Assembly (NCBI GenBank): GCA_973895155.1 | Contig: OZ316892.1 | Span: 4,796,510 to 4,860,509, forward strand | Origin: Marsupella aquatica | Lineage: Eukaryota; Plantae; Marchantiophyta | Reading direction: 5' to 3' | DNA: 64,000 nt | In this document: piece by piece, positions 1 to 62,099 of the stretch | Numbering within the stretch: position 1 is the first letter of the stretch | How the letters are laid out: every line of letters begins with the position of its first letter | Notes under the pieces: generated by a model | Databases searched by the model: none | What the model was told of the DNA's origin: nothing | Seen by the model: only the letters and a program-made list of their open reading frames with translations | Made by a program: the position numbers and the translations under genes

Positions 1-385
1 TTCAAACTTAATCCCACTCAAACCCTAAACGTGAGTCCCCAAAAAACCAGACCCACTTAAATCATTCTCAAATTAGAATCCATGTTAAAATAAACATGAC
101 TTAGGAAAATATATTGAGAATGTTATGTGTGCCATGTGTACCAATGATATAGTGACACGTGTAATTTACATAGTCCGACACAAAGACCCCCTAACTTCCT
201 TGTATGCCTTCCATCTACATAGTCAAAAATATTAATATCCCTATTATTCTTACAAGTTGTCCAACATATAAAATTGACCCTATTGTTCTTACACAAATCT
301 TCTTAAGTCTTCCGAGAAACCCAATTAACGGACCCTATACTTAGTCGCACGTGATATGAGATTTTCGCGAAGTGAGACCCCCGAG
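1..385. mobile_element. Right end of a TIR DNA element (terminus CTCGGGGG...CACGTGCGA read inward) inserted into the CACTA transposase; left end outside the window
   Basis: Transposase similarity stops at about 386. Reverse complement of 345-385 (CTCGGGGGTCTCACTTCGCGAAAATCTCATATCACGTGCGA) resembles the TIRs of the 29228-29518 element. Confidence 0.6.
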
Positions 386-1034
386 GGGTTAGCATGTTTG
401 GCTCATACCGTGGCTCATGACACACTGTGCATTCTGTGATATGGGCTGTATCCCCGTGAAATAACATGCAATCATTCACACAGGCATGAATAATATGGTA
501 ATCCATACCAATGGATGAGAGAACCTTCTTTGCATCCTTCCAGGTCCCTGGCAACACATTCTCCGAGGGTAACATCAAGTCATGACAATATTCAAATATG
601 TCTGATAACATAGAATTGCTTGTCTTGTGTTTGGCTTGAATGTTCAAGAGCCCCAATATGGCAGAAAGACGGCTCAACCGAGCACCCTCAAAAATAGGTT
701 TTCGAGCATGTTCCTCTGCCTCTTTCCATTGTTGTTGTCCCTCTGGAGTATGTTGTGGCCGTGGGTCATTTGAAGGGCCAACCTCATGACCAATGTGAGG
801 CACATCATCCTCAACATTGGCACCAAACCAATCAACCATGAAGTCATCCATGGCTCTATCTTGATCATGCATGACCTGGTCATCAGTCCGAGGTGCGGCT
901 TCCTCATCAGCACCACCTACATCATTACTTGATGAGGAATCACCCTCTGATGGTTCTCCCTCTTCTGGCATACCCATCTCCCGATATGTTGCTCTCAACC
1001 TTCGTGGTAACATTTGTTGAGATGGTTGCGCATT
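386..1034 (-). pseudogene. CACTA transposase (TnpD/Tnp2 type), N-terminal exon, interrupted by an insertion
   Basis: YHIIHACVNDCMLFHGDTAHITECTVCHEPRY matches the CACTA IHACxNDCxL...CxxC...RY motif, preceded by LPSENVLPGTWKDAKKVL. In-frame acceptor AG at 1035-1036. Confidence 0.88.
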
Positions 1035-1245
1035 CTATGCATATTACAACCAAAAAACCTCCTCATGTATATTTGACCAAGAACAACAAATTAAAATAGA
1101 CTTAACACCATTCATTCAAGACATTAAGAATTAAAGTAAATGCATGGGCTAAAACCTTATTACTCCAAAATGAGCCCAAAGGCCATATATATAATAGTAA
1201 ATGGGAAGTCCAAAATAGGTGCAAGAGGATAAAGGACATGATTTC

Positions 1246-2074
1246 CTAATCCCACTCATAGTGTGTGAATAACTCATCTCCTGCTCTAATGGTCCTAGTA
1301 GCAAGAACTAAGCAATAGTCCTTATGATATGTCGTGCCATATGGTGCCGGCATTGGACCATCAGTAAAAACCCACTCACAATTGGCCCTACGTTTGGGCC
1401 GAGTCCCCACTGTACTATTTATGAAACCAGCAATATTCCCATTACGTATGGGATCACCATCTATCACCCGTTGCTCACTATACCTTCTAGTGCTACCATC
1501 AAAAGTATCCATCTCTAGAGCATATGTTTTCCACTCAGGATGTTGTGCAAGGATCATGTTCCAATGTCTTCTCTTGTAGATGGGTCCACCGTATGGGAAC
1601 AAAGTAGGACCCTCTCTACCACGAACACTTGACCCACCCTCCTCATCCATGATGATATCCTCACAAGCAAATACTCCATATCCATGTCTCTCCAAGTGTG
1701 GAAGTTTTCACAATCCAACGTCTACCCCAAACCACAATCTCCTCATCAAAATCTGTAAAATAAGGCAAGCCAAGAGTGATAGGTTCCCAATCCTTGATGA
1801 TAGAGGCACACTTGCCAGTGAATGAACAAACACCCCACCTACCCTGAACTAGTGTTCTGGATGGGTCATTGGGTGCTCGTGGCCTCCTGTTGGATTGGGG
1901 CCTGGACCGGGGTCTTCGTGTCTCAATGGGCACATGAGGGTGTTCCCCTTCTGTCCCATGACTGGTACTAATTCACAAACCCAAGGCTTGTGAAAGTGCA
2001 TTGCCTATAGCATCTAAAACTCCTTGTGATGGGACATAGGGTGGTGGTGTCACCAATCTACGCATACTGGATCC
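1246..2074 (-). pseudogene. SET-domain (lysine methyltransferase-like) exon inside the CACTA element; one premature stop and one frameshift
   Basis: Motifs GYGVFACEDI, YGG, GNIAGFINS..ANC and LATRTIRAGDELFTHY. Acceptor at 2075-2076, TGA at 1973-1975, 1-nt frameshift near 1690 between VKTSTL and RHGYGVFA. Confidence 0.85.
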
Positions 2075-2185
2075 CTATTCCATGCAAACACCCACAAACA
2101 ACCAAATGTGTAAACCATATGTGTAAACATTGATTCACCTCTAAAAATAACAGTAAAGAACGGCAATCAATTGAAACAAACTTAC

Positions 2186-2443
2186 CATATGGGATGAAGA
2201 AGCCCCGGGAGTAAGACCTCTATGACGTCCATATCTCTCAATATGTTGAGCACACACATAAGATTTTTGAGAAATTTGGCCCACACATCTGGTGCAGTCA
2301 CAAAGTCTTCGGGGTGGACCACGAGGACCAGTAACCTCGGGCTGAGGAGGAGGGGGTATATCATCATCGGAGGAGTACTCACTACTGGATAGTTCAGAGG
2401 AAGAGGACATATCCACTGCCACATTACATTGCATGTAGGGCAT
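2186..2443 (-). CDS. CACTA first coding exon with transposase-associated Cys/His domain
   Basis: RLCDCTRC...CAQHIERYG resembles the CPCxxC...H..xxG transposase-associated domain. Phase-0 donor ATG|GTAAG at 2186/2185. Start is ATG 2443 or 2410. Confidence 0.75.
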
Positions 2444-2544
2444 GATTAGGAAAAATTAGGCCATATATAAAGCGATTTAAAAAAAATGAACTCAAAAAAC
2501 AATTAGGTTGGTTTATACATGGGGTTTTATTACCTTTTTATATT

Positions 2545-3580
2545 TGTTAGCATGAAACCCAAATTAAGGTGAGTGTCATGCAAGAAGAAACCACATTATA
2601 ACCTTTGGGAAAATTGTAATACCCTATGTCCTAAGTGAGGTTAGATTATTACCTGAATGAGACCCGGGCTCAACAGTGCCTATAGGTCACGTGGCTTTTG
2701 GAACATTTGCCAAGTCTAGAAGTAGGAGGAAAATACTGGAAACAAAATGTAAGTTTGGATGGTAATTAGCAGCCGTCAAGTTGTGGAATCTTAGACATTT
2801 ACCCACATATATCATGGCACAACAAAGAAGGGCAAGCATAAAAATCTGTACTAACAACATTGACTGTATACATGATGTTATACCTTTTAGATGCCCGGGT
2901 TCCCACAATGCATATGCATTAGACAAAAGTTGAGGTAGTAGTGTTGGCCCTGCGTTGTATCATGATTACATGGGTTTTCCCCTCAATTGTTAGCATAAAA
3001 CCCTAAACCCTAAACCCTTATCCCCCCTCGAGTGAAAGGTGAGTGTCATGCAATAAAAACCCACCCTAGACCCCTGGGAAAACTCTAAAGGCCTAAGCCC
3101 AGAATGAAGTTGGACAATAATTACCTGAATGAGATCCGGACTCAATAGTGCCTGTAGGTCGTGTGGCTCATTGAACATGAGCTGAATCTAGAAGCACGAG
3201 GAAAATACTGGAAACAAAAAAGTAAGTTTGGATAGCCATTAGCTTCTCTCAAGTTGTAGACCCCCAAACATGTGCATATAGATATTCTTGCACAACAAAG
3301 AAGGGCAAGGTTTATGAACAATCTCTTTATCAAACCCTGCTAACATACATGTTTAAATATACCTTTTAGATGTCCGGGTTCCCACAATGCATATGCATTA
3401 GACAAAAGTTGAGGAAGCAGTGATGGTCCTGCATTGGATCATGATTACATGGGATTTCCCTCAATTGTTAGCATAAAAACCAAAACCTCATCCCGCTTCA
3501 AGTGAAAGGTGAGTGTCATGCAATAAAAACCCACCATAGACCCTTGGGAACTCTAAAAGCGTAAGCCAATGAAGTTAGCA
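2545..3580. repeat. About 470-bp internal tandem repeat (about 2.2 copies) inside the CACTA element
   Basis: GGTGAGTGTCATGCAA recurs near 2568, 3038 and 3508. CCGGGTTCCCACAATGCATATGCATTAGACAAAAGTTGAGG recurs near 2895 and 3374. Confidence 0.85.
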
Positions 3581-4280
3581 AAAACCTAAATGGTCAATTC
3601 CCTTCAACCATCCTATGCTTCTCTCTACCATAATTATATGTCACCCCTCTTGGTTACCCTCCTAAGATACCATAAAAGTAACCCAAGATACTATAAAACT
3701 GAAACCTCTCTTTCAAACCCTCCTAAGTTGGCCTAAACCCCAAAACCCAAAACATAAAACCCCTCCTAGCTCTTACCCTCCAATACATATAACCCCAACC
3801 TTCATAAATAAAACCCCCCTGCAAACCCAAAACATAAAACCCCTCGTATCTAAGCCAATCTAAGCCCAACCTTCACAAAAGAAACCCTCCCCTAACCAGG
3901 CCAAACCCCCTCCTCTTACCCTGCAATATAACTCCTTCAATTTTCTAACCCCCCCAATCCTTATCTCATCACATCCCACTAAAATGCAACATAATCCTCT
4001 ACATCTACCCCATTTAATGTTCATAAGCCCCCTTAGTATCCCTAACAACACATCAAATACGCATGCGAGACGGGGGTTATGGCAAAACCAAATAGCGAAG
4101 GCTTTTCCGAATCTTGAAGCTTCGCAAAGATAGAATTTGCGAAGGCCGATGCATCGCAAACTGCGATGCGAAACAAATCGCAAAGCCCAATATTTTGAAT
4201 CCTTATGGATTGCCGAGCGCGGACAAGGCGGATTCAGTTCATTCAGGCCTGAGGAGAGCAACGAGGGCAAGGGCGGAGCA

Positions 4281-6384
4281 ATGGCGAGCGAAGAGGGGAC
4301 TGGTGGTGATGGAGGAGCTTCTGGCAGCAGCGGAGGCAACCGAGGGGGGGGGATCGATTGAAGGCGATTGTGGATGAGCATTTTTCGGTTGCACAGTTGA
4401 GTCAAATTGATTTCACCAGTCCAGCAGGGCTGGCATCATTGAGTGCCCTTCTGGGCCAAGCCTTGCAAGTAGGTCTCACTGCAGGGCAAGCAACAGTGGA
4501 GGAGGATGCAAGGAAGGCAGCAGAGCAGGCGGCTGCTGAGAGGAAGCGAAAGAGGGACGAGAGAGCTCAGGCTGGAGTGCTCTCGCCTCAAGCATTGGAA
4601 AAGAAGAGGAGGAAAGATGAGAGAGACCTGATCAGGAAACAGAGGGAGGAGCAAAGAAAGAAGGAGGCAACAAGGAGGAAGCTACCTCTGATTACTTTAG
4701 AGGATGAGGGGATTCCCACCGAGCTTGCTTACAATGGGGCCAAGAGCACAATCAGGCACATTGTATCCACAAATTTTGCAAGAGGAGTCGAGTGGGGCAC
4801 TTGCTCAAAGGCAGAGCAGAAGCGAGTCATCAATCAAGTGAAAGATGCATTTCGAAATGGAGGAGAGATGGATTCACAGTGGCTTGCTGACAAAATTTCA
4901 AACTCCATGTCACAAGCTAGATACCATGATAGAATGAAGATTAGGTCTCACCTTAGAGATTTGGAGGAGTATAGGAATTTGCAGAGGCCGCTGCAATTCT
5001 CAGAAGATATCTGGCAGGCCTTCTACCAGACAGAGGTGAAGTTGAAAGCAGCCAGGCTCCTCAATGATTTCACAGAGAAGCTGGCAAAGGCTCGAAGGGC
5101 AAAGGAGGCCGGGAAGTCTGACCGGGACTTGAAGGTGATGGAGCAGAAGGTAGCCCAGCTCCAGCAGGTTGTAGCAGAAGTAGGCGATCCACCCAACAAG
5201 TTCCTGAAGGCAGCTGAGCGAGTCCGAGACAAGCCCAACATCACCCACAGGCTGGGTCAAGGTGGCCTCCCCGGCCTCAAAGCAGCATTCGTGAGTGCAC
5301 CTCCCTCTCCTCCCTTGACTTCTTGCTACTCCAATTCCTATTCCAACACACCTGCAATGAGCCAACTCTTTCTTGCATTTCCACCAAGTAGTTACAATTA
5401 GACTTGTTGTGTCAGATTAGGTCACGTACAGTTGCTTCCCTCTCGGGTTTTTGCCATGACAGAGTTTGCGATACATTTGCGATGCGGGTAGCTTCGCAAA
5501 TCCTTCGCAAACCTTATTATGCCCTTTTTTTGCTTACGTTTGCGAAGGCGTTGCGAAGACGTTTGCATCGCAACCAGCTTCGCAAACGTAATTGTCCTTA
5601 TGATTGCGAAGCTGGCGCCTTCACAAAATTTCAAAAATTTGAATTTTTAAATTTTCCGATCGTTTAAGTGTTCTTTGAGGGTCTTCCCCATATATGCCAC
5701 CCTCCATAACCCCAAAACCTTGATGCACCACCCCACCAGCCCCAACAAACCCCCTAATTTTTAGAAGCCATGTGAATCGGGTTATGGGTTGGTGTTAACC
5801 CAATTGTGCTGGTTTTGTTTTGGCTTAGTACAAGAGGTACAAGAGGAAGATTACGGCGGCTGAGATGGAGGTGGGCCAGAAACATGGGAAGGAGCATCTC
5901 TTTCAGCAAGTTGATGAATTATTGGTGAGAATTTTTAGGTTATTACATTCATTGCAATTTTGAATGAATATCTCTTTTGTTCACACTTGTAAAGAATATG
6001 AGACTAACAGACACCCTGGTTTGCTAATGGAAGCAGGGAGGGGAGGATGGTGACTCCCATACCGAGGGTGGCACCGATAGTAGTGATGAGGATGTGGAGG
6101 GGACAGGGGAGGGGAGCACAGCTCCTGCTACTCAAGCCAGGCCAACTAGCACTGGAGACCAGTCATTTGCATCAGCACGTTCCAGTGGTGCTGGGGGTGG
6201 TAGCGCGGCAAGCCAGGGCGGTGGAGGTGGGGATGAGGATGAGGATGAGGATGAGGATGAGGGTGACCCCGAGGGTGACCAAGAGGAGGAGGAAGTCCAA
6301 GTTGCACCCCCCCCAAGAGCACACAAGGGCAAGGAGAAGGCCAAGGGGAAGAAGGCAAGGAGGGGCAGGAACACTCCTTTCTAG
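4281..6384 (+). CDS. Second CACTA gene (TnpA/Ptta-En/Spm-like); exons about 4281-5290, 5829-5924, 6037-6384; frameshift in a G9 run near 4344-4352
   Basis: 347-aa ORF with RPLQFSEDIWQAF and ITHRLGQGG (compare the Ptta H(R/H)LGxGGY motif). Canonical in-phase GT-AG junctions and an acidic, then basic, tail. Confidence 0.65.
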
Positions 6385-6636
6385 CTCGATGTAGACAAGT
6401 TGTAGCTAGAGCACTTACATCGAGTTCACATGTATAGCGATCAGCATGCATGGCCGTGGCACTTTACCTAAGGGTTTTTACCCTTCCATTTTGTAACTTT
6501 TGTACTTTTTCAGTAATGCCATTTTAATTGTGGCAGACTGGGTCAACATCACTTTCCTCCCTCCTTCAAAACCCATGAATGGTCTCCCTCACCCTCACCC
6601 TAACCCAAATACACAAAAACCCATGAAATATACATT

Positions 6637-7172
6637 TTGCGAAGCTTTTGCGAACCAACCCCCATCTCAAAGAGCCACGGTGAACGTATCGCAACCATTC
6701 CGAGGAGAAACGCATCGCAACACTTGCGATGTTGTCTAAATCACAACCCGAGCGAAGACTTCCTCTCCACACGTTTGCGAGTTAAATGCCTTCGCAACAA
6801 AGCGGTCATCCGCTTCTCGCAATCTTACGAGTTTGTTTGCATCGCAAGTTATAGAGAAATTTAACATCGGAAATTGCGATGTAAATGTTATCGCAACGCG
6901 AGCGATTCATTTGTTCTCGCAAAATAATGAAATTTGTCGTTTCTCAATATTTGCAAGGACAGTGCCGTCGCAACGTTGCGGAGATGTTGCGATGTATTTA
7001 GAATCGCAAGTTGCGAAGTAGTTGCGAAGGGCCGTTTGCGAAGAATTTGAGATGGGAAGTAGCGAAGACGTTGCGATGCGAGTAAGTTCGCAAATTGGGT
7101 ATTTCGGATTTTGTTTCCTTTGTATGATGCGAAGGGTGGTGGTTCGCAAAAGAGGTGCATAGTGTTGTAGTG
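6637..7172. repeat. CACTA subterminal repeats and TIR
   Basis: Many direct and inverted copies of TTGCGA(A/T)/(A/T)TCGCAA ending in ...TGTTGTAGTG. Confidence 0.85.
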
Positions 7173-10860: not shown

Positions 10861-11542
10861 GACAGCCAGAACAAGGCCGGTCTTCAAACTGACTCTAATC
10901 CAAGGAAAGCCTTCATAATCAATGTAATATTGAGGCTTCAAAATCTACGTGAACCCTAAAGTACATCATTTCAAAGCAGAGAACTACATCACTAATTAAT
11001 CATTCTAAACTAATTCTAACCAACCTCACAGAGCTCGAACTTCACACAGCTTTAATGACAAAAACGAGTGTTAGGTTATTGAAGATTCTCCACCGCACCA
11101 TACAGAAAAGAAGAAAGTGCCTCTCATATGTAGGAAAGAAGTATTGCAATCGAGAATGCTGAGCACTTGGAGCAGGATACGGCATTATAGTGATATCAAC
11201 CAAGACTAGGGAAGTATCCGCGAGGAACTATCCAAGGCCCGGGGAAATACAGCAGATTCACCAATAGACCCAGAAGTCCGCACTCTCAAGGTTCAATACA
11301 AACCCCCTCTTGGTTTAAATGTGACATGGTGAAGCTTTCTAGTGGACAACAATTAGTCATAGATCCACTGCAGGACACTAGCATGACACAGCATCAGCAG
11401 TATCATTTGGTGAGATTGGGAGTAGGAGTAAGCTAAAAGAGCCCACATCAATGGACAAGGGTGGAGGATACGAAGGATTGAATGCCCAAAGAAGAAGTTT
11501 TGGGAGGTCCGACGGAGGAACATACGCAAGAACGACTCTTGT

Positions 11543-14500
11543 CTAAAAAGCGCTCCAGCCACGCTCGGCTGTTTTCTTCTCCTGGCCTCCTGCGGAGAAA
11601 GGACCTGTACCAGCAAAGAGATCATCCCCATCATCGAAGGATCGAAACGTCCCGAGCCTCCCATTAGCACCATCACCTTTCACACTGCTGAATGAATCGA
11701 ATCTGGCAAAACTGCGGTCACTTTGGTTCCCAGCTCCAAAACTGTTCTCGAGGCGATCTTCACCAGTTCCTGGAAATGCTGGATTGTTTTGAGGGCTTGC
11801 AAACGAATCGAATCTGGTAAAGCCGTGGTCACTACCAGCTCCAGACTTTCGTGGGCTGTCAAACAAAGTGTTTCCCGTATGAGTGTTATGATTGCCTCCA
11901 AAGACTTTTGGTGATCTGTCAAAGTCTTTGGAAGAGCCAAGTGGTCCAAATCCATCATACTCTTCTGAATCTCGGAAACCATTACCACCATGACTCAGCG
12001 TTGGACTGGAAACATCGAGGACCCGACCAGGACTTGACACGTGCATTGACCCCGTGTCCAACGAATCTCCAAAGCCATGTGATGATAATCCTGTCTTGCC
12101 AAATCGAGACGTCCGGCTACCAGTCACATCCAAAGATGCCTGCACCACAAATTGTGTTAATAACTGTCGTTCCAAGTAGATCAGCCCCAAAACACAGCAC
12201 TGATTGCCACTAGACTATAAATTAAAAGCCATCAGCACCGAACATTGGTAATTGAGATATGTGACATCAGACCCTGTCCAAGGGAGACGATAAAGTCAAT
12301 CGAACATAAACAGCTGATGATAAGCTCCTGTAGGTTTCTTCAAACCTCAATTGTACTCAATGATCAGCGTATTGAGAATGTATGCGTAGAACTTCCAAAT
12401 ACCTGAGTACTGGGTGGATTGCTCTGCAGCCCCCATGATGCCCTTACACCAGAGTCCACCTCCTCATCATGACTAAAAGCCGCTGACCAAGAGACACCTC
12501 CATCGCCGAATGTATCACTGACAGAATTGTATGACGGTGAAAATTGGTCAACAATGCCAAATTTCAAGGAGAATTCCTGATTTCACATATATCTATTCCT
12601 ATCGATTTTTATACTTCCCAATCTACAGCCAATACTAAAGGTCTACTCAACAGAACTCTGCACAAAAAGCACGGGCTAAGCCTCGAAATCGAAATCTTTC
12701 ACCAGAAAATGACACGCTTCTGCTCTGTATATACCTGTTCGTGGTAGAGCTATAAGATGTAGGACCATTGAACACGTCCTCTTGTGACTCGGTCATATTG
12801 GCATATCTGCACAACCATCATTTCAGAAATTCAGACTACACCCATGATTGAGCCAAGAACCGGGACCTAAGGCTTAGTCTGATGCGTGTTGAACAAAAAG
12901 GCACGAGATCGTCGACCTTTGATTCGCCTTGCTGGCATTTGCTGTTTTGTCATGGTTGCTTTTATCAACTGCTTGAGAACTCGAAGTGGACACCTCATTT
13001 GGAGGGCTCTCAAGTCCACTCCTGCCTGATTCACTTCCAGCTCGAGGAGACGCAAAGTCGGCTGCTGCAAGCTCTTTTGGAACTTGTACAGTAGGCCCTG
13101 CTTTTGGGGATGATGCAAATCCATCATCCCCAAACGGACTGCCTTCATCCCAACTTGCAGTGGGCTTCGCTGTGGAGGCTGCGAGGTTACCCCCAGTTGC
13201 ATCATCCATGAAATCTTGAAGAGAAACAAAACCTGGTCGATGACCCCACCGAGCGAAAGGTCAAACGGTCAATACCATGACAACAGGCCAACTGCTATCA
13301 AACAATTCACGAGCAGAAGGGTCGAAATGACTGCGTATAGGCCTATGATCAATTCTAGTCATCAGTTCGTACGCCTTGCATAATTTGAGTCTCGATAAGA
13401 GAAAATGCAAGGGAAGCATAAAAAAACCTTCATCATCGAACTTATCCCAATCCTCATCCCACTCTGCAGCCTTCTCCTGAAGCCCGGGTTGCCAGCCTGC
13501 ACGAGAAGTACCAACAAGATCCATCCACATTTATCACCAAAAGTTCGCCACCCAATAAATGAGGTGAGAGTGCACTAGAAATAACAGGTAACATAAGCGA
13601 CGACAAGAACAAGTATCACGCCGGTCCGTAGGGTGTGCGTTATGAAAGTAGACGCGTCGACTCCAGCAAGGTCAGAAACCTTCGAAAGAACGAAAGGCGC
13701 TAACAATGTCCAAATCAATCATGCAATTCCATACCCATGCTCTGTGCTTCATTTCATATTCCTTAGGGCGTACAATAGATCATTTCCAACTTGCCATCTG
13801 GAGTTTGACACAAGACGCGAGTGCTAGCAAGTAATACGCTCCGACACGATTAGAAGTAATTACCAAATTGCTGCTCCGTTGGAGCTGATGCCTTCACATT
13901 TAAGCCCAGACGTTTTGCGCGCTCATTAAGGGCTTTCTTCAGCTCATCCAGATCAGAGCCTATCCGGTCAGCTTTACTCTGTTCCATCAAAATAGTTGTT
14001 ACAACATGACCAAAAGCCGCCGACATCCGCCCATCCAACCAGCATTACTGCAGTACTGAAGTGACCGACATTGGATTAAAAATATATCACAACCGAGTAA
14101 TTGTTTTAGGCTGTAATTACCTGGAGCAATCCATTGGCATCACCACCCTGCTCCATCTTGGCGATTGCATTATATAGCTCTATCTTTTTCTCCTGTCATG
14201 GTAAAATATCGGCTATTAAAGGTGACAACCACGAGAGGCCTTCGAAAATGCATATGATTGGGGACTTCTCGGAACTATAGATATTGATTTCGTGGTGTGA
14301 ACTGGAATCGTTCCAAGAGCTCGAAAAGAAATCCTGGCACGGAAATCTATGTTTTAAAACTGGTCAACGGACGTTCCTAACCGCAAGTCCTCTGTTCAAA
14401 CAAGTTCGGCGCATCACTGTTCAGTGTCAAAAAGTCAACACGCAAAATTGAGTATTCACGACTCCTAACTGCAATTGTGGCAAACCTGGATATCACGGAA

Positions 14501-17500
14501 GGCTGCTTCCTCAGCAAGCAATCGCGAATTAGATTCACCAGCAGCCTTGAATCTCTCATCATATTTCTTCGCTAGTGATTCCATCTGCAATTGAAGAACC
14601 ACATAAACAATCACTGAGGCATCCTACGCATGATAGTTGAAGAACACAAAAGTACAGTGTCTGATCAGCCCATGGAAAAACGCTACAATGCAAATTCGTA
14701 GCTAAAATTGTCTGGAATGAAATGAAGAGGCAGTCATCCAATTGGAAATATTTCTATATAATTGCATCTATCTTATAATACTCTTCCCCCAAATTCCTTT
14801 TGGTCTGGAATTGTGATGTCATATCCAACCAGGGGTATAAAATGCAACCTACCTCACGCTTATCAGCAGATGCCCTCTCGGTAATTTCCCCAAGCCGGTT
14901 TTCACATCTGCTTTTGAACAATATCTGGAGACATATGGACGTTAGAAAATCTCAAAGTCTGATGCCAACTGACTGAGAACTCATAAAAAATGACTAATAA
15001 ACAAGTACGTATGGAACTATAGAATCATATAGAGCACGGGTTCAAGAAGCCCATGATGCTCACAATCTCTTGCAACTTTGTGCGGTAAAACTCAGCCTTC
15101 TCCTTGTAGTCCATAATCTCCTTGTCTAATTCATAGGCCTGCCACATAACGATCCAGACAGACGGTCCTTTGCCGTCATTACGCTTCACCAGGAAAAAGA
15201 AAATCGCTGCATCTATAATCCTTAGAAAACTCTTGGCTATATGATGGCCATGATTAGCATGAAGAAATTTAATCTGGAAAACATGCTTGTCACCCAACCC
15301 TTTATGACTGGGCCATAGCATGTTGCACTAAATTATTAAACATTGTATCTTTCCGTCTCTGAGTAGCCTTTTGACCCTAGCCTCATTATCCCCAGGTCTA
15401 GAATCCCTCAAACGCTTATCCCCCACAGAGAAAACAGTGCCAATTTTATCAACAGCAGATTGTGCTCATAGTGTATCCGTGAGTTGCGAAGGTTGACTTA
15501 GACCATACTTGGAATTCTCAACTCTCGAGAGAAAAATGTTACACCTTCACTAATGACATCAAAGAGGGGAGGGTACTGCAGAAGACCTATGTTCTATCAC
15601 CATCAACACAAACAGGTCGAAACAATATGTGTTCTAAGAAGAACCACTGCTCTCTAGAGTTACACTTTCCCTGGTTGGTTAGGCTCGAAATGCAAGCTTT
15701 TCCTCCAAGACAGCAAACACCAATCCATTTCAATCTTCTTTGTGTTTTAGCGAAAACTGTAGTATCGACTCTTTGATCATGGATTCCAGATCCTGAAAAG
15801 AGAAACCAGCTGAACGTTTACATGCAATAACCTTTATTTTATTCATTCTCAAGGTTCCGTAGCTGACCAACCATAAGATCCTTCTTGGCAAGCTCTTATA
15901 ATCTATGGGGAAAAGCAAACATAATACGCTCTTCTTAGTAGTTTAGTTTGTAACCTGTTTTTTTTTACTGCTTAAACATTTAATTATCATTCTGCAGTTA
16001 TCTGTTTTTAGTACTTGCCTTCGATATTTACTGTACTTTGCCTAGTTGCCTCACTGGGGAGACCCTTTGAAATTGAATCAATTTAATAGTTCCCAGTGAA
16101 ACACAAAGAAACCTATCACAACCAAAATCAAAAGAGATCCAGGCTCACAGCACAGACGTCACATACATTCAAGATAGCATTGAGGACTCTATTTTGAGGA
16201 CAGCCTCAAACTTCAAAAACTTACAGATTTGAGCTAACCCTTCGCCAAACCATCAAAGAAAACGCTAAAGCCAAGTTCTACCAAACATCTGGTCTTCGAA
16301 CAGAGGACCGTTCTTTACCTTTTTTTCTGCCACTTCAGCATCCTTGTGTCTTGACTTCAAAGTATCCTGCTCATCTCTAGACAGTTGATTTACTAAATGT
16401 GGCTCCAAGATGGGAGCCTTGGATTTAAACTGTGCAGCCTGTAGAGGATCACCAACACCACCTGCAGAATTTGGCATTTGTGATGTTGTGGCACGATCGG
16501 CTCCTACAGGCGGCATCGGTCGGGGAAAACCTGCGTTGTTCGGCTGCAAACCACCTGAGTCAAGCACATGACAAGTATGAATAATGGTTGCAAAACGAAT
16601 ATCATGGGATCCAAGAGCAGGAACTTAGAATGAGCAAATACGAAGGTGTTGTCAACAAATTTCTCTCAAGATAATCCAACGCTCGGAAGGTCACAAGTTC
16701 CTAGCTTAACCCATAATCAACACAAATAAAATCCTTAGTAAGTCCTTCACTAGGTCCACACCGAAACTGAAACCAATAAATCAAAGTACTGATACTCTGC
16801 CAGAATAGCACGGAAACCCAGCCACAGTACTTCCGAAGAGTATTTGCAAATTATACTCAGTTAATTTATAGAGATCCACTAGAAAAAAACGGATATCCCT
16901 TCCTGAGTTTACAGGCAGTTGAAAAAATTATACACCTGCATTCTGTTGCCAACTGGGGGCATTGTAGCGAGGTTCATTGTTCTGTAGAGTAGTGCGACCC
17001 TGCTGGGTTGGAGCTCCTGGTTGATAAGTTTCAGTCTGCTTGTCATCAGCAAATATGCCTGGAGGAAGTACAGGGGGCAATGGTCTGCCTTCTCGATACC
17101 TTTCCATAAGATAGAGGGCGGTACAAAACTCTCGCATGGACAGCATACTATCTCCATCCTGATCAGATAGATCCCATACCTGCTTCAAAACCTCTGCAGA
17201 TAATTGAGATTTGGTGAGCTTTCCAATTTCTAAAGGTGAGTATCTCCACTCAAAGGGCCCCCAATCCATATAATAGGGCCATAAGCCTTGTCTACTGGTA
17301 TCTCCAGATAGGCCAGGCTTATAACATCTCCAATCGTAGAGAGCACAGAGGAACTTGCATTCGATCACTTCAGATATGCTTTCATTTATGATCAAGGCAG
17401 AAGGAATGCTCTTCACAATCAGGGTCATTCTCAGCAATTTTATCGTTCCACTGGAACAAGTAATACTTTCTAGCAGTCACTCTAAACAGACAGCAACATT

Positions 17501-18976
17501 AAAGCCATAATTGTACCTCTAGGAAGGCGCCAACTCAAGAAAAGATCTCGAGCCTGCTCGCCTGTAATTCTCCCATCTCTGTCTGAATCAACCTCTGCAA
17601 ACACTTTGGTGTAACGTTGCATATCGGAGGGTGTCATCCGGGGCCAGGGAGCTCCCAATCCCACACCCACAGGTGGAGGAGCACCGAACCCTTGCCCAAA
17701 TCCCCCAAGAGAAGCAGACCCAACAGATCTCGCAAGTGAACCAGCTTGCTGTTGCTGAACATCTTTGCTGGCATCCCGTGAAGGTACACCCGTTGGGACT
17801 AGCGCCCTTGTGGTAGGCTCCGCGTGAAATCCTCCATCCCCAAAATCACCAAATCCTTGGGATGAAGCTGGAGCTGGTTTTGGAGGGACTGGCACTACTG
17901 CCTTAGCAGCAAATGGATCCCCCCCAAATGCATCAACCAACGATGAGCTTGTAAATGCGCTTGGAGTAGACTTCGGAGCACCCTCTCCACGCAAGAAATT
18001 ATCTATACCTGTTTGCCCAGCAGGTGCATCTTTCCTTCCCTGCGAAGGACCAGCCTGATAGCTAACTGCAGGAGTAGGAGCACTCACAGGAGCTTGCGGC
18101 GCAGGAGAACTCCCAGATGATGTTCTTATGGAAGGCCACGTATCTGCGACAAATCCCCCGGAAGTCCGTTGTCCCGTCGCTGATCCGGGCCTGGGAATTG
18201 GCGGAGGGGGCCCAGAGTTATTGTTGGGCAACGCAGGCGGCTGCGAAGACCAAGATCTCGGGGGAGCTCCTGAACCAGACGAGAACTGACCCTGACCCTG
18301 GAAACTCCCAGATGGAGCTTGCAGGGGTGCCGGGGCCGCCGGATAGCTAGGAGGTTGAGAGGGAGGAGTGATAATGCGGGGAGCTGGGATTTGCGCTGCT
18401 GCGGGGCCAGCCAAGGCAGCACGCACTATCTCGTTTGTGAGCTCCCTTCCGGTCTGCGCGACTGTCACGAGCTTTAAGGCATTGTAAAATTCAAGTTTCG
18501 ACAGAAAACCGGACGACCCGTGATCTGCGAACTGCCATATCTGCAAACAAAGTGAAGTCAACGATGTAGTGTTACACATTTGCACGTCCATACCATTTCT
18601 GAAAGTCTGTCTACTCAATCCCTATGGCAAATGCACTGACAATACAGCTACCGAAACTTCCGCGCGGTCCCAAAAATCTTTCAGAAAAGCTCACACAAAG
18701 CACTACACTGCATCTTCATCGATTTTTGAATCTATGGAGTGAAGGCCAGTCGATCCCGACATCATTAAACGCGTTTGAAGCACCAAATGGATACTTCTGC
18801 GATAGCACATTGATGTCGTGGCTGGAAAGGGGAGAATATACACGCACCTTTGCTAGAGTAGGTTGAGGGAGATTGGCTCCCTGGAAAAATGCGACAGCTT
18901 CCGCACCACTGACCTTGCCATCCTTGTCCAAATCAGCTCGACGAAAGTAATCCTCAAAAATAGATAGGTTTGCCAT
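11543..18976 (-). CDS. Eps15-homology (EH) domain protein, AtEH1/AtEH2 (Pan1)-like TPLATE-complex subunit; about 14 exons
   Basis: EH1: FRRADLDKDGKVSGAEAVAFFQGANLPQPTLAK|IWQFAD. EH2: FAEVDSDRDGRITGEQARDLFLSWRLPR|EVLKQVWDLSDQDGDSMLSMREFCTALYLME. Also coiled-coil exons, WDEDWDKFDDEGF and an RFDSF-repeat tail. Junctions checked at 18848/18540, 17517/17193 and 16936. Confidence 0.93.
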
Positions 18977-25130: not shown

Positions 25131-28100
25131 AGTACTCCGTGACTTCAGCAGGATATGTGCCAAAAACAGCTTGGGTGACAAGGGGGTAATGCACCCATTA
25201 TGCTTCAGAGACAAGGGGCAGGAACTCTGTGTCGTGACCACCAGCTTGGCCTCGGAATGACTTGGCAGCACAGAGATACTCCGTGCAACGCCCGCCATTG
25301 GCACTGTGAAGTGCAACTCGTACGTAGTGGAAGATTGGTGCTACCACCGAGACCTGCCCAGAGAGAGTCTGAAGGCGAATGGGAGGGGCTGTGAATCCCA
25401 TTCAAACCAAATAAGTAAGTAATTACTAGAAAGTAACAAATCATTGACTGATCTATGTGATGGTCTTTAGTTCGACGATACTCTTTTAATTCTGTTCCTC
25501 AACTTCGACTTCTTGCACCTGGTAGCAGCTACATTTCCATGTTTTAGAGACATACGCTTGTGCGGAAGAATTTCTCTTTGGTAAGTGTGTCCCTCTCTGC
25601 TCTCTGTCCCGTGCTCCAATTGGAGGTTTGTGAACTGTGGAATCAAATGTCTAAACCTGCTCCGAGAGACTCTCTAAACCCTAAACCCTAAAGCTTTACA
25701 AAAACAAAGACCGTCTCAATCCATTCCTTCATTCTAAATCGCCTATTTCTTTCAGCTGCCATGACAGAATCTGAATTCTCGCAGCAACCACAACACATCT
25801 CCTAAGAGAGATAGGTTTTAGCTATATTTGACAATGAACTCACACTCACTGTGAGTCAGCTCCTGATACAAATCTTTCACTCACATATTGTCCCTCGGTA
25901 TCTCCTAGTTGATCCAATTTCGATTCCACTTCACTCTTCCTCTCGAGAAAGAAAAATTGCGGGTCAAATATACATGAGCACTCCAGATTCTGCCAAATTG
26001 CTGCCGGTGCGAGGTCCTAAAAGGCAGGTCAGGTTAAGCACCATCTCTTATCACTCTAACAAGAATGAAAATACAACTGCAGACCCAAAATCCACACGCA
26101 ATTACATAAGAACAACTCGGAGAGAGGATTCCGGGATAGCTACCGTATCACCAGGAGAAAGTTCATCATAGGAAAGAGCGGAGGCTATGCCAAGACAACG
26201 TTCCAGCCTATGAGCCCACGTCTTAGGGTTCCGTCATTCGCCATACATCACAGACAACCTGTTGGGAAACACTTTACCTCCTCTCTGTATGAAAGTCATT
26301 GGAAACGTGAATGGACTCACTGGGGCATAGTTCGTTCACACTTTGGAAGAGCGTCCCTCACCATCTGTCCTACCATGCCTTGCAGCTCCTCGACTGAATC
26401 ACTTGCTGTGTCGGGTTGTCTCTTTTTGTCTTTTTCTTTTTCTTTTCAACTGAAGCCCTATTTAAGACTTCATCTTTTTCCAATCCCAATCCTTGTCAGC
26501 AAATTGATCACGACACAATATCTTTGAACAGTCTAGTGCTTTCCCTTGTCTATATCTGTCGCCTGAGATGTTCCTATACGTTTGCTCCAGTCAGAATTCA
26601 GAGGTGTGATGGAATTCGTCTTACTTAATTCTCAACCTTGCGGGGATTTTATCTGACTCCTTGTAGGTCGTATTGGCTCCTTCTTTTGAGGCTTCTAAAT
26701 CTGAAGCTATTTTGGGGACTTCTTCTCCACTTCCCAGAATTCCAGATCACTAGCAGAAATCAACCTGATGAATCTGATCTACCTTTGCTGTGATCACATG
26801 GGAAGGAGACCTTAGTTCTCAAATTCAAAAGCTATTCAAGATTGCACATCCCAGGATGGCGAGCCCCATGTTGCAACTCAGACGAAAATCTCTCCGTTGG
26901 GTCCCAGGAGGGATGTAACACATGTGACTACGACACCTAAGGGGACTGTCAAGCCTCTTATGTATAGTAGAAGACCATGTTGCACGGTGTGTAATTTACT
27001 GTTTGAACATGACTATCCAGCTCTCACTAACGGCACTGAAGATGACCCGGTCTCCAGAGATCAAAGAATCGAGACTCATCAGTGGACCCAATTACCCCAG
27101 GTAGAACAATTTGGCTTTGGGCACCCTTTGTCTGGAGAAAGTATTGAAAAGAGATTTCGCAGCAACCAAGTCCACTTCACAGAGAAAATTCAGTTTATCA
27201 AGCTGCAGCAGAGATGCACCAACTCCGACAAAGACAACCAGCGGAAACTGAGATGCTTGCGAACAGGAAACCTTGAACTGTATTTCTATTCTCAAGAACA
27301 TCAAAATCCTTCAACCGACATAAACACTACGGTGGCAATCACAATTTGAAACGCAACAGGCTAAGTCTCTATACGAAAAGGTACATCATACTACAAGTGA
27401 AAAGAGTCGTTGCACCACAAGACAGAACCTGTGTCCATATGCGTCTGCCCAGCCAGTATTCATGGCAGGACAGGCCCGTGTACCGTGCACTGGAGCTCTG
27501 GCCTCTGTTCGTTGAACACAAGTCTGTGTGGATCACTTGCTCATCTGGAAGGGTTGGAAATGAAGTCAGCAATTGAGATCTCGGTAAGGCATCTGACCAT
27601 AACAATTGTCATGAACTGTGAGCAACCTTCAAAATTGACGATTTATGTCCCATAATTACTCACTGTTTGCAACCTGTCCAGAAGCCATTATTCATCTCGG
27701 CATCAACCTCCCAAAATATCTGGTAATTGCTCTTCGGCTGCCTGCAACAGTCATGTGTCATAAATATTTAGTTCAACCCTGTTCAAGGTGAGAAGATTTA
27801 AGCTCTTGCCTCTAAGGTCAATGTGATGTTTTTTAGTTTTTTTATTATGTATCTCCATTCAGGCTCTTCATATGTTTGCCATTGACACTCTAACAGTCAT
27901 CATACAATCAGAATTGATACTGGTCTTTCTCCACTAAGTGCTGCTCTACTCTAGGGCAAACAGTCTCAACCCCTGGTCCCAAGACTGGCTCATCATGGTG
28001 GAACATTATACAGGCACACCTCTGCAATCTACTGTGTCCATCCCGCCTATATATATCCCCTGGGTGCACTCCACATTTTGGGCAAAAATCCTCACAACTG

Positions 28101-28437
28101 TGGATACAGGCAGAGTAGCAGATTTGCTTTGGTTGTAACACTCCATTATCGACTGCCACAATACAAAAACCTATGGGCAAGGGTGGAGCATCTAGAGTAA
28201 TGGGCCGACTGTACATGTATGCCTGCATGTATGTACAGGCAAAAACTCCCATTGCACAGCAAAACTGGCAGGGACCAACTTCATTCCACCAGCTTCAGGC
28301 GTAGCCTCTCAGCTCTGCCTTCAAGGTCAGCTCCCAAGCTGCAGCGCGTCCTTGGTATTACTGTGACAAATACAAGAAGCAATAGTTTATCCAACCCAAA
28401 CACTTCAATGAATTTCACGCAACAATTAAGGGTTCAA

Positions 28438-29227: not shown

Positions 29228-29518
29228 CTCGGGGGGTTAACTAAGTGTATATTTGGGGGTACCACGTGCGATCCTAGCCTAATATAAATAGGCCTATTTT
29301 ATAAAGAAAATATTCCAAGAATATTCTCTAGCTATTTTCAATATTAATAACCTATTTTACTTTATAAAAAATATATATTAGAGAATATTCTATAAACATG
29401 AGTTTATAATACCTTCTTTTGCCTCCTATGCTTTTTAAAAATTTAGTTAAGTTCTATCCAAAATACCTATTTTGGATCGCACGTGGTTCCTAAGATTTTT
29501 TATAGTTAACCCCCCGAG
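29228..29518. mobile_element. 291-bp non-autonomous TIR element (MITE-like)
   Basis: TIR CTCGGGGGGTTAACTA...CCACGTGCGATCC at both ends. TSD GGTTCGGC (8 bp, or 10 bp GGGTTCGGCC if the TIR is 1 nt shorter). AT-rich core. Confidence 0.9.
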
Positions 29519-32112
29519 GGTTCGGCCAAGTAGTCCACCAGCAAAGCAATGACCTCGATTCTGCTGACAGAGGTCACAAAGCCACTCCTTGGCCCAATCA
29601 TGCCCTCTAGAAATGGCAATTCGTGTGCACTCAGGCCCATGGCCATCAGGCTCCTCAGGATCCTGCCCATCAACTAAGTAATGGAAATGACGACTGCAAG
29701 GCCCATCGCAGAACAAAATTGTACCTCCCTCATCACATTGAAAACAACAAGGGGGATCCATGCAAAGGTGCTCTTTATGGGCAAACTTTGGATCCAGCCA
29801 GGTAGCAGCAGCCCCTGCCATGCCCGATGTCATGTGTGGATCTGCACAATTACCTGGAATATTACAACAAATCTATGGAGAGGGACAAGGCACAAACATG
29901 AAGACCCGCATGAAGAGCGTATGTGTAGTGTACTTACCGTGAGAGAGAACAAAGTAGAAATCAGGAGATGTCCCGCCCACTCAGTCTCACGGAGTACAAT
30001 AACTTAACTTGGCACTGGTTTATGTGTGCTCTGCACAAAGAGCAAAAAAGTTAAACATGGTTGGTTGAGAGAAAATCGAGGAATGGATTGCCTCTCTCAA
30101 AATTTGTTGACTCACACGTATTGACTATCTATTCGTCTTCTATCAAAGTTGTTGAGAAATAAACAAAATAAAAAAGGCTCAACTGCAGTGGAATGGAAGG
30201 AAAGCAAAGTGGCGGCAGTCAGGCAGACTGGAAACAAAAGACTTTACAAGGGCTAAGGAGAAGCTAGCAAAAGAGAGTAAAGGGAAACTCCACAACAAAC
30301 AAAACACTTCAGAACCTAGCAAAATTGATGGACAACTGCACTTTTGGTCAACAAAGCTCCAAACATACAGACAAGGAAACTATCTCATAGGAGGGAAAAA
30401 ATTATTGGGAAAGAGGCAGAGCAACAAGTGGAATGCAGACAAAAATGCAGGGCAAGTGGCCAAGGCATGGCAAAAGAAAAGTAATGTATTAGGCTGGACG
30501 GAACTTGAGGGTCATATTGTCTGTCAGATAAGTACAGATAGTACTAATGGAGACAAGATGGGAGTAAACAATGAATGACTACAAGGGAATGCGTCGAAGG
30601 TGTATCATGAAAAGAAAGATGTACTTATACACACCAGGAACCAGAAAATCCCTTCAAGCTAGAACACTGTTGTTTGACGATTGCTGCTGCTACTACTGCT
30701 TTGCACCCACCCACTAGTTCACCCAGAGCTGCAGCATTCAACCTTGCAGCATCCAGCGGATAGAATGAGAAGTCACAGCAACTCCTAGTGCTTGCAGCAA
30801 CTAGCAGCAAGTTGTAGTCGCTTGCAGCAATTTGCAGCAAGTCCCAACACCTCCCAGTGGCTCCCAACAACTCCAACAGCGCACCTCAGGAGCAGGAAAT
30901 CACTTCAGATATGCAAGACCGATGGAGGTGCAACACACAGACAAAAAGCGGGACTCCAGCAAAACTAGTTCACATAATTGTACGCAGATAAGCAACGTAG
31001 ACAAAGCCCAAATACTGTTTGACACACTGGGGATAAGATTGGTGGACTTACGCACTATGCATATGGCATGAAGCATGCCTTTAAGCGGTTCCGATTAAAT
31101 AGTCACAACAGCAAACACAACATACCAATTATACAACCAATATTGGATCAATGCAACAGAAATGGATCTATACACATTGTCTGGTTAATTAAACTATGTG
31201 TGTGTGCTCTAAACAGAGAGCCAAAGTTAAACATGGTAGGCAGGTCAGTCGCAGGCCGCCCCAGCTCACAAGTCCCAAGTGAAACTGATGACTAACCCAG
31301 AAAATAGAGCCTTACATCAAACGAAGTGAATCTTCGTCATAGTCACTTGGCGCTAATCGGTTCTTGAGAAACAATCAATAAAAGAGGAGAAAATTGGGAA
31401 ACCATGGCTGCAAAGGGGGAGCAAAAGCGCTAAATGAGCAGCATGGCTGGTCGGGGGAATAAAAAATTCACTTCATAAAGCACATTGATGGAACAGAAAT
31501 GATCCACTCATGTACCTTGATTGACACAAATATCTGCTCAATTCCATTGACTCCTAAACTCCATCGACACTTCAGCAAAAAAAATAGATACATCACTTCA
31601 ATGATCTTCCCACATTGACATTTACCAAGGTCATCAATAAGCATTGAAGCACTTGGGAACAACTGCTAAACAAAGTGTATTCATGCGCAACTGTAGCCAC
31701 TCGAACTCAGAAGCAGCGCAGCTCACTCGCACTCCAACTCGGAAGCAAAAACCATGGGATACACTTCAGCTCGGAACAGCAATGCCAAGGACAAATCGTA
31801 GGGCAGAAAACAGCAGGTGGATGGGGGATGGAGCAACCTCAAACAGATGTACACGGACTCAGACACAATTTGTAGCATCAGGAGATGAGCAATGACATCA
31901 GTGCTCAGAATATACCAGATGCATCACATCTCAGAGGAAAGGAAAACAGAGTAGACCAATCAAGGGTCTATTTAAGTAGATGAAAAGTTCACCACCTAGA
32001 GTTCACCTAAGTGCCTTATACACAGTCAAGCAAGGGAGGAACCCCTAAGATTAAAGAGTTTACTAGATCCTCTCTGCAATGCACTATCTAATCCGCAGGT
32101 CGATTTCAACTT

Positions 32113-32940
32113 CTAACAATCACTACTCTTCTTACTTGTGCCCTTAAAAGTGTCATGCGTTATGTTTCCAGAAGCTTCAATGCTATAGTTAACCGCGCGT
32201 TCCTGTTTCTTAGAAGAGAGGGAAGTAGCTCCTGCCGACACCGCCGTGATATGATTCATGATCTCTGAAATTATTTGCATCGGATCAAATGAGAGACAGG
32301 GTGTTAACTCGAACACTTGTACATTCCTAGCATTCCACAAGTGCCACAGAACCTGATAAATTACGAAGGCCCGCAGTGACAATAGAGGTGAGCATCCCAG
32401 GATGGAGCACAACAGATCTACAATGCTCGTAAAGTTTCCGATAAGTTCTCCTCTCATCCATCTCTTCATCTCAGTCCAGACATTGAGAGCATGCTTACAG
32501 TGGCAAAATAAGTGTGGTAAGGTTTCTATCCTTGAGGTGCACATTGTGCAACATCCATTAGATTTCCCGATCCGCAAGGCCCGAACACCAGAAAATAACC
32601 CCTGTGCAATAATTCGCCATATGAAGACCTTTGCTCTTGTTGAGAGGTCCAAAGACCACATCCCCTTCCACACTGAGCTCCATTCAGTCTCATTAAGTGT
32701 CACATTCCAGATACGATTCAGCCTTTCCCAGTCAGAGCCTTTAGGTCGTAGCATCTCATACACCCTCAGATTTGTTGTGGTAAATCTCCTCATCTCAGTC
32801 TCAGTGTCATTCCATCTCCAAAGTCGAGGAACAGCACCAGATTCCCTGCCCCTAACAGTAGAACAACAGATCATATTGTATATGACCCGATGAAGGATCC
32901 GTCCAGTATATGTGGGTAAAAAGTTAGTAAATGAGGCTAG
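32113..32940 (-). mobile_element. 5'-truncated L1-like LINE (zf-RVT and C-terminal region)
   Basis: WKGMWSLDLSTRAKVFIWRII..GL, CTMC...ETLPHLFCHC and LWHLWNARN. Confidence 0.88.
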
Positions 32941-33051
32941 CAGTGTCCCGTGCTGATAAGCCGCGGAACTGGCCTTGGCAAGAGCGAAACCGGTGGGAAT
33001 CGACTTGTTCAGGGCGGGTTCTTGGGTTTAGAGAGCCATGGGACGCACCAC

Positions 33052-43222: not shown

Positions 43223-44832
43223 CTGTTCCAATCGATAACTCGATTCTAAGCAAGTGTTGGAGTCTCTAACCTCGTCTCAATGCAAACTCGAGATACTCGT
43301 TCGTTTCATCGATCGGCATCTTCTGCTCTGAACACAATTATTTCTGGGAATCCAGAAGACAGTCCGGGTATTTCAGTTTAACGTGAACGAGCTTCCATTT
43401 GACAGAATATGTATTCTCGCTCAGTGTCAAGAAGGCAAAATGTCTGCTAAATCGTCAGAGAAATGCGAACAAGGTTGATCCAACTGAGGTCTGATGTGTG
43501 CCAACTTGAAGGGATCATTCATACAAACTCACGTAACTTTGTTCTGCGAATTCTGTAAACCCAAATAAAAGTAGAGTTATCTGCGTGGGACGGTGTCACA
43601 GAAATCTAGAATCCACGTGACCTTCCAGAAATTGTTTTAGTTTAAAGGAAATCTTCTTTAAGCTTAAATGCGGTCCAAAGGTGAACTTCGAACGCCAACT
43701 TTTGAATCAGGATGGAAGCATTCAATTCCCTCGTGTACCGGATCAGATTAGACACGAATTCAAGCACATCAAATTGACGCACAAATCCTGAACAATTCAC
43801 AATATAGAGAATCATCACTTACCGTGTGTGGCAATCACCGGACAGAATTGTCGGCATTGCACGTTTCACATCTTCAGTGTCGATATTCCGGTATGCAGAC
43901 TACGTTCAACAGGTCGGAGTGTACAATGTGACTTCTGTTTAGTCTTTGAGGCGCGTCTCCATCACCGCTTCTGTTTCACACCGCTTATATTTCTGTCACT
44001 GAGGTTTTGCCTGGCCTCAAACTTTTCTTGCCTGCATGATTCCTCAGAGGATCGTTTGGCCGCTTGTCGATCGCATGCCACTACACGAATGTTAAGCTGG
44101 TGCTGCCGGTTTTGAAGCGCGGCCCCGTCATGTGCTCACCAAGTTCAAAATCTGTGCCTCCGTCGTAGGCCTGCAGCGGTGCCGACAGTCGAGTTACCTT
44201 TACTCACGATCTGTTTCACTTGGACAGCCCGACACTCGAGAGTTACCTTTAGTCGGGATCTGTTTCACTTGGACAGCCCCACCAGGAACAATTTTATTTT
44301 TTATGTATCGAACCGAAATCAACACTTGGTAGTCTGTCCCCACCCGAACAGGGTGACATTTGCTCCATTGTTCTAAAATGGTCAAATGTTAAAAAGCAAC
44401 TGAAAATGGGTGTTTCATATTTGTGAAGGAAGTCTGACTAGTATGCCGGGGCATGATCAGCAACTGATCACTGGATAAACTAACTCAAAAGGGCTGCAAA
44501 CATGGATAAACTAATTCAAAATGACTGCAAACAGTCAGTAGAGCATTTACAAGTCACATTTCAATCACAACTATTGAAGGCGTTATCTGAGTCTTTTCCA
44601 CCTTCAGGACTAACCCGTTGGTCCAACCAAGGTTAATTTAGATTCCCTCAATACAGAACGAGTGGGTTGGGATCCCACCAAGGTCTAAGTGAAAATGTTC
44701 CTGATAGCCTTGAATTGCCTGAGGTCAGTAGGCAAGGGGATTAGCCTGGAAATGAAAGGTCCCAGGCCGGTATATCTCCCCACCCCAACAGGGAGATATA
44801 TTCATTCTAAGGGAACCCATTTGAGGGTGACA

Positions 44833-62090: not shown

Positions 62091-62099
62091 CACATGATA

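Follow-up and report, generated by a model that had tools for sequence, protein, structure and literature searches.

The question raised by this locus is whether a plant transposon of the CACTA (EnSpm) type can make, from a single gene, both its transposase and an enzyme that marks chromatin. The stretch analysed, hereafter called the window, comprises 64,000 nucleotides (nt) of the liverwort Marsupella aquatica (assembly GCA_973895155.1, contig OZ316892.1, positions 4,796,510 to 4,860,509 of the forward strand). An original prediction made from its letters alone had proposed that an exon encoding a SET domain lies in the first intron of a CACTA transposase gene and shares exon 1 with it. The window holds the left half of a decayed CACTA/EnSpm element with a minus-strand transposase gene, in the order terminus, gene 2, exon 1, SET exon and transposase exon. 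Our preferred reading, to which we give a probability of roughly 0.45, is that the window contains a decayed member of a bryophyte CACTA family with a SET exon under selection, in which two proteins are made from one gene and the SET enzyme offsets silencing.

The arrangement was compared with 34 loci recovered in a scan of metagenome contigs, which in their overlapping parts show the same succession from terminus to transposase. Nearly all of these loci belong to one Sphagnum-type family (92-97% identical where compared), to which L018, from a third family, is added, and the splice-site alignment comprises the window and 32 of the 34 loci (L014 and L020 omitted). Exon 1, the first coding exon, occupies 2186..2410 on the minus strand; it had been placed from 2443, but the conserved start codon is that at 2410, which is ATG in 14 of 15 covering loci. 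The phase-0 donor predicted at its end is present (ATG/GTAAGT, the intron starting at 2185), as are AG acceptors preceding 2074 and 1034, each of which is in phase 0 with the donor. The exon 1 product has a start rich in serine and acidic residues, followed by a C-x-C-x2-C-x13-H-x4-G module. Intron 1 (2075..2185, minus strand, 111 nt) leads to the SET exon (1246..2074, minus strand), an alternative last exon encoding a linker, pre-SET strands and a SET core at 1683-1249. The SET domain is recognized by PF00856 at 1707-1249 (28.5 bits, cut-off 22.4) and stops at 1246 as had been read, its stop codon (1248-1246) being conserved across families. An AT-rich spacer (1035..1245, minus strand, GC content 0.32) precedes the first transposase exon (386..1034, minus strand), which was delimited by homologues with PF02992 and by its match to the loci and is broken off at about 386. 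The frame opening at 1034 was rightly assigned to a CACTA transposase, because its six best homologues all carry PF02992. The downstream exons of L016, a Sphagnum-type locus, match PF02992, PF13960 and PF13952, all above cut-off, and do not match PF13963.

The splice signals are conserved: the GT of the donor is present in 18 of the 19 loci that cover it, the AG of the first acceptor in 23 of 25 and that of the second in 19 of 21. In the comparison with L003 the intron interiors are identical in 42/88 (48%) columns for intron 1 and 58/187 (31%) for the spacer, the donor in 6/6 and acceptor 2 in 11/13. Forty-six proteins contain the end of exon 1, and 25 of them, all Sphagnum and Calypogeia models, continue at the acceptor corresponding to 2074, 19 read through unspliced and 2 continue otherwise; these counts come from gene models, which need not rest on RNA. 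The Cys/His module and SET also occur together in a single chain, P0071 of a Logan contig, which would be a complementary DNA (cDNA) or an intronless form if the Logan calls are unspliced, as P0037 suggests. The splice from 2186 to 2074, with 3' end formation before the transposase exon, is considered very probable. The spacer would then have two roles, as 3' untranslated region of the SET product and as the terminal part of the long intron in the transposase transcript. The skipping splice from 2186 to 1034 is judged likely from the sequence, because the second acceptor is conserved and in phase and because of the logic of the domains, PF13963 being normally N-terminal in plant CACTA transposases. 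In both families a TAG directly before the 1034 acceptor closes the transposase frame, and the seven codons before the first Met of the transposase exon keep N..PS with synonymous change, as if translated.

A third outcome of splicing, comparable to SETMAR, would be a single protein in which SET and transposase are fused through a splice within the SET exon. The models P0006, P0022, P0115, P0140 and P0146 do run from SET pieces into transposase, and a phase-0 GT at 1467 (6/9 consensus matches) is common to three families. However, these models exit the SET exon at varying places, the stronger inner donors (1842 and 1379) are out of phase, and a splice at 1467 would cut the domain with the loss of motifs III and IV. 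The conserved SET stop codon, the stop before the transposase acceptor and the lack of a common in-frame donor near the SET end also speak against a fusion, which we consider highly improbable. Since the inner donors are either out of phase or domain-cutting, annotation error is the probable origin of the fused gene models.

The copy in the window is itself decayed, as had been recognized, and the in-frame SET product expected from the 2186 to 2074 join does not exist in it: a TGA at 1975-1973 is followed by a 2-nt frameshift near 1686, upstream of the SET core. The stretch is contained in five public sequencing runs from three studies, none recorded as RNA, and four of them (X1, X2, X3 and X5) were compared; their contigs cover introns as well as exons and contig depth is not equal to copy number. 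All contig depth over 1975 has a sense codon in the four runs. A 2-nt insertion behind 1686 is found in 669.5 of 707.1 units of depth in X1 and 30,037 of 47,528 in X3, and in 644 of 21,408 in X2 and 577 of 157,050 in X5, where short contigs are numerous and may fail to reach across this position. Judged from these contigs, both lesions look private to the window copy. The element is also present in the two studies other than study P1, and pieces more than 99% identical to the window occur beside pieces 82-90% identical, a mix which fits a multi-copy family with subfamilies. The best 15 of 46 contig joints include no 2186/2074 or 2186/1034 joint, which is uninformative on splicing.

The ratio of nonsynonymous to synonymous change (dN/dS, Nei-Gojobori counts) shows that the SET segment is under purifying selection. 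Four between-family pairs give 0.13-0.22 for the SET core, with upper bounds of 0.22-0.37 and none of 2000 bootstraps reaching 1, which can be compared with 0.11-0.14 for exon 1, 0.18 for the transposase exon and 0.17 for gene 2 between families. The SET domain is therefore a working part of the element lineage and not a passenger. It is neither confined to this copy nor always decayed: one SET protein cluster has 360 members (five Sphagnum species are named among the 15 members listed), and many intact 343-residue models composed of exon 1 and the SET exon exist in several Sphagnum species. CACTA elements often capture gene fragments, and the broken state of the window copy would suit a captured host gene fragment or a nested insertion without function. 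This explanation is refuted by the selection test and, as the SET exon has the same position in very divergent Riccia families, conserved splice signals in other families and no ends of its own that could be seen, it retains almost no credibility.

One feature of the substitution rates stands apart. Between the window (1683-1249) and L016 the SET core has a dS of 0.63 (0.42-0.96), about half the values for the transposase exon (1.50; 1.01-3.12) and gene 2 (1.19; 0.89-1.70). Either an exchange of the SET exon between families or an extra constraint on its DNA or RNA could be responsible.

The fold was assessed on a structure model of the SET product of L016 (L016:3-608) built from a 77-sequence alignment; a 7-sequence version gave a predicted local distance difference test score (pLDDT) of 33.5 and no match in the PDB. 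The larger alignment gave a pLDDT of 93.7 and matches to Set1, EZH2, SET8 and SET7/9 that are tied (Z 12.5-11.8, 15-23% identity), the top one having Z 12.5 and a root-mean-square deviation of 2.5 over 124 residues. From this predicted model we are confident that the SET exon product adopts the SET fold. In the full-length models PF00856 is the only domain matched, with no DNA methylase domain. The GxG motif is conserved (62/67 and 67/68), as are YxG (Y or F in 70/70, G in 69/71), the Asn of motif III (67/74) and the Tyr of motif IV (56/61), whose Glu is also kept. Catalysis dependent on S-adenosylmethionine (SAM) is, on sequence and model, somewhat favoured. The best sequence-profile match among solved structures is LegAS4/RomA (E 6e-7), and a viral fold library gave generic SET matches only (13-20% identity). 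A giant-virus SET cluster in Atlas (0.96) was not taken as a sign of origin, and an antisense open reading frame (ORF) that overlaps the SET exon was interpreted as a shadow frame.

In the preferred reading the gene would give either a short product of about 345 residues, composed of the Cys/His module and SET and ending in the spacer, or a long product with the same module and the transposase. The short product, by prediction a lysine methyltransferase, would place its mark on the chromatin of the element, to whose TTGCGA repeat fields the enzyme could be brought by the shared module or by the gene 2 product, and the mark would offset host silencing. If this is true, splicing would tie the dose of the SET enzyme to that of the transposase.

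A number of observations weigh against this reading, the first of them concerning the transposase arm. Exon 1 is joined to the transposase exon in 0 of the 46 exon-1-bearing proteins, under the same reservation on gene models, so that the claim of an exon 1 shared by both products is borne out by them for SET and not for the transposase. A Met seven codons into the transposase exon (1013) is conserved and could serve as an independent start, and L018 is without acceptor 2 in the 225 nt of sequence present. For the transposase-associated Cys/His domain claimed for exon 1 the signal is weak: window exon 1 has no Pfam match, and exon 1 stays below the PF13963 cut-off of 27.7 bits, 3 of 17 exon-1-bearing sequences giving weak matches (E 0.031-0.14, 12.8-14.9 bits) aligned over the Cys/His core. 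From its sequence the module is likely to be such a transposase-associated, PF13963-like domain. The counts of conserved sites represent two or three independent lineages, since the loci are mostly of one family. Among the Sphagnum-type copies the SET exon changes in a near-neutral way (dN 0.050, dS 0.057; transposase 0.037 and 0.076), and inner stops occur in several of 11 such loci; near-neutral change is as expected for copies decaying after insertion.

These points raise the alternative of two tandem genes, in which exon 1 would belong to the SET gene only and the transposase would start from its own ATG at 1013 or from another upstream exon. The absence of exon 1-transposase joins and the conserved Met would be explained in this way, and the accessible text of PMC13547354 describes Arabidopsis EnSpm families that alternate spliced and split-gene layouts. 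Nevertheless, just 146-211 nt lie between the SET stop codon and the transposase acceptor, which leaves little space for a 3' end and a promoter. The acceptor is conserved within a diverged spacer and its phase matches that of the exon 1 donor, there are signs of constraint on the codons preceding the Met, and the transposase would be left without its usual N-terminal Cys/His domain. Two tandem genes are accordingly regarded as a rather improbable arrangement.

The remaining objections concern the active site. The canonical motif III of SET methyltransferases is NH, and here the His is replaced by Ser in 70 of 75 sequences. The chain ends a median of 7 residues after the motif IV Tyr and the Cys-rich post-SET region is absent in 56/56; in the window 3 residues follow this Tyr, and none of the 56 rows has at least two Cys there. 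The cofactor pocket may be incomplete. With the weak Pfam scores, some of them below cut-off, these features would suit a SET product that arises by the same splicing and is a catalytically dead reader or decoy, which would shield the element by binding a histone tail or a host silencing factor. Against such a dead protein, GxG, the motif III Asn and the catalytic Tyr are conserved across sequences merely 23-50% identical. Moreover, LegAS4/RomA, which in the printed alignment also lacks His at this place, is an active H3K14 methyltransferase (PMC10653858, available in part), although it has a post-SET region. We consider the dead form unlikely.

The likeness to LegAS4/RomA (PDB 8sr6, 8swi, 5czy) includes a GNxxxYIN motif without His and an NxE(W/F)V strand. 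It differs as a bacterial effector with post-SET and ankyrin parts, at 21-26% identity. This likeness shows neither the origin of the SET exon nor its target lysine, because by fold LegAS4/RomA scores no better than other SET families, being level with them or lower.

The data do not single out a target lysine, and they carry no information on the substrate or on the direction in which the element would be affected. A histone substrate and an anti-silencing effect, with recruitment by the module or by gene 2, are argued by analogy and remain tentative, at somewhat less than an even chance. An active enzyme with a non-histone substrate (the transposase, the gene 2 product or a host silencing protein), or one that damps the element, would fit the finding that no histone-mark family is closer than the others, and SET domains are described as also methylating non-histone targets in the accessible part of PMC10653858. 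Known transposon accessory enzymes and regulators (VANC, TnpA, TET/JBP) read as anti-silencing, which by analogy only argues against this alternative, and we give the non-histone enzyme a small share of the likelihood.

VANC of the VANDAL Mutator-like elements (MULEs) resembles the proposed SET product in being a plant transposon factor aimed at the element's own chromatin, which is shown for VANC and would apply here by inference. It is not a SET protein, and VANC recruits host machinery rather than writing a mark. The Spm element makes TnpA and TnpD by alternative splicing (PMC13547354; bioRxiv 10.64898/2026.08.24.746577; both seen as partial texts, as are the further papers cited below), and TnpA acts against silencing via clustered motifs, lowering DNA methylation at cognate copies (same two sources). 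The En/Spm elements of maize and Arabidopsis are thus similar in that one CACTA gene gives transposase and regulator by alternative splicing, which for the bryophyte element would be inferred. They differ in that TnpA is a transposase-derived DNA-binding protein for which the accessible text names no enzyme domain, whereas here there is SET, with gene 2 maybe in the role of TnpA.

SET genes on DNA transposons are already known. They have been reported on HarbingerS and MuDR elements of Phytophthora (PMC12730594) and on Helitrons, as cited in bioRxiv 10.1101/2025.02.11.637652, and in all of these are thought to counter silencing; the same preprint describes red-algal Plavaka elements of the EnSpm superfamily whose accessory gene PAG2 carries SET. 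HarbingerS, MuDR and Helitrons belong to other superfamilies and hosts and have accessory genes, with no shared exon mentioned in the accessible text, whereas the transposase here is of CACTA type. Plavaka is more similar: in both EnSpm-superfamily elements a PF00856 SET has been kept over long times, and the Plavaka repeat arrays are proposed as binding sites of an accessory protein (the PAG2 function being predicted), repeat fields being found here too. However, PAG2 is a separate gene combining an N6-adenine DNA methylase and SET in giant elements of 17-19 kb, whereas in the bryophyte element, a land-plant one without DNA methylase, the SET exon lies within a classical CACTA transposase gene and its product is joined to the Cys/His module.

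The original prediction knew of no described plant CACTA of this kind, and the novelty is narrower than it implied. Our literature search, which did not cover subscription papers, Repbase Reports and supplements, found no land-plant transposon with SET and no SET with a shared exon, and CACTA elements with SET are not mentioned in the accessible parts of PMC11982613 and PMC4158355; DNA transposons that carry SET genes, Plavaka among them, have on the other hand been published. What appears to be new, from sequence comparison, is the SET exon inside a land-plant CACTA transposase gene. To this the present analysis contributes a second diverged family, the conservation of splice sites across families, the spread in liverworts and the caveats on the active site. 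The plant anti-silencing factors VANC and TnpA are described, in the texts accessible, as DNA-binding proteins, and a transposon SET enzyme would write chromatin marks directly. The SET sequences of the family also form a large subgroup whose active site is unusually composed and from which a compact tool for epigenome editing could be derived. This transposon is the probable source of hundreds of models annotated as 'SET domain-containing protein' in Sphagnum, Calypogeia and Riccia, which would lead to an overcount of host methyltransferases.

At 71-82% identity, the SET core of the window has matches among the gene models of Sphagnum and the liverwort Calypogeia fissa. In Riccia the order of parts seen in the window is judged from gene models, and in Calypogeia exon 1-SET models are present. 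A profile search of 1.84 billion proteins (50%-identity representatives) gave 123 matches at E <=0.001, of which 121 were new; 6 of the new proteins have an exon-1-like Cys/His motif and 7 continue from SET pieces into transposase sequence. One further pattern match, P0073, was discarded as chance. Twenty of the profile matches were looked up, giving 6 from Riccia sorocarpa, 1 from Calypogeia, 1 from Ginkgo (the weakest match) and 12 without organism. No relative was found among viral contigs.

The Riccia families are distant from the window in a tree of 59 of the 77 aligned rows, where the window groups with Calypogeia P0002, L018, the Sphagnum-type L016 and P0062 (100/99). Over the SET region, Calypogeia P0002 and P0052 are 70-77% identical to the Sphagnum-type L016 and P0003, and the Riccia families are just 37-44% identical to L016. 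There are hints in these sequences of horizontal transfer between mosses and leafy liverworts. A wider proposal would have an old bryophyte-wide CACTA clade encode in one gene both its transposase and a minimal but active SET histone methyltransferase, lacking the His and the post-SET region and brought to the element by the shared zinc module, which would be the first land-plant transposon to write its own histone mark, with one young branch having moved between peat mosses and liverworts; taken as a whole this is doubtful. The Ginkgo protein P0182 (Gb_21150) and Calypogeia P0132 are distant members of the SET subgroup with different N-termini, and could be domesticated genes or residents of other elements.

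The rest of the element in the window can be described from its 5' terminus inwards. The terminal inverted repeat (TIR) expected of a CACTA element is present (7141..7172, minus strand), its terminal sequence CACTACAACACTATG lying at 7172-7158 and similar ends being found at the equivalent place in L001, L003, L031 and L034. The terminal 15-mer has 1 exact match, and its matches with 3 mismatches are at chance level. The window is without a 3' end of its own. A matching 3' CACTA end is present in an internally deleted copy (L022:2386-2449), where it directly follows a truncated transposase. None of the 34 loci spans both ends of one copy, which bears on the 3-bp target site duplication.

A subterminal field of TTGCGA/TCGCAA repeats, delimited by motif count, lies at 6630..7150 (no strand assigned), with smaller clusters at about 5470-5610 and 4120-4185. 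Thirty-four matches to the motif fall within 4.8 kb, compared with 16 over the remaining 56.8 kb, and the identical three clusters recur in Sphagnum-type loci. Gene 2, divergent from the transposase gene, was delimited by conservation across loci (4281..6384, plus strand; exons at about 4281-5290, 5829-5924 and 6037-6384) and in the window has a frameshift within a G-run at 4344-4352. The repeat clusters are upstream of gene 2, in its first intron and downstream. Its product has no Pfam and no Atlas match, and this conserved three-exon gene without known family is a candidate for a new TnpA-like protein.

Between both genes, sequence repeats define a unit of about 470 bp in 2-3 diverged copies (2541..3560, no strand assigned), which may contain non-coding exons or promoter parts; parts of it are also found in L018 and L031. 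At the other side, positions 1..385 (no strand assigned) are foreign repeat sequence that interrupts the transposase and lies outside the element. They have no match in any of the 34 loci, and a contig matching 386-1029 continues beyond into a sequence different from window 1-385. Contig depth is high at 248-494, which suggests that 1-385 belongs to another repeat family.

Outside the element, a host gene with EH and EF-hand domains is found at about 11500-18600 (minus strand). The frame 29450-29872 (minus strand) has a weak match to an NSD-like PHD finger (PF23011, E 0.004), with a Cys-rich frame at 27911-28294, and this region is perhaps another element with a chromatin domain. A zf-RVT fragment (PF13966) of the long interspersed nuclear element (LINE) type is present at 32116-33027 (minus strand), and an open frame of 553 residues at 41618-43276 (minus strand) consists of 36-residue tandem repeats (108-bp period, about 11 copies). 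The GC content falls to 0.14-0.17 at 62000-64000.

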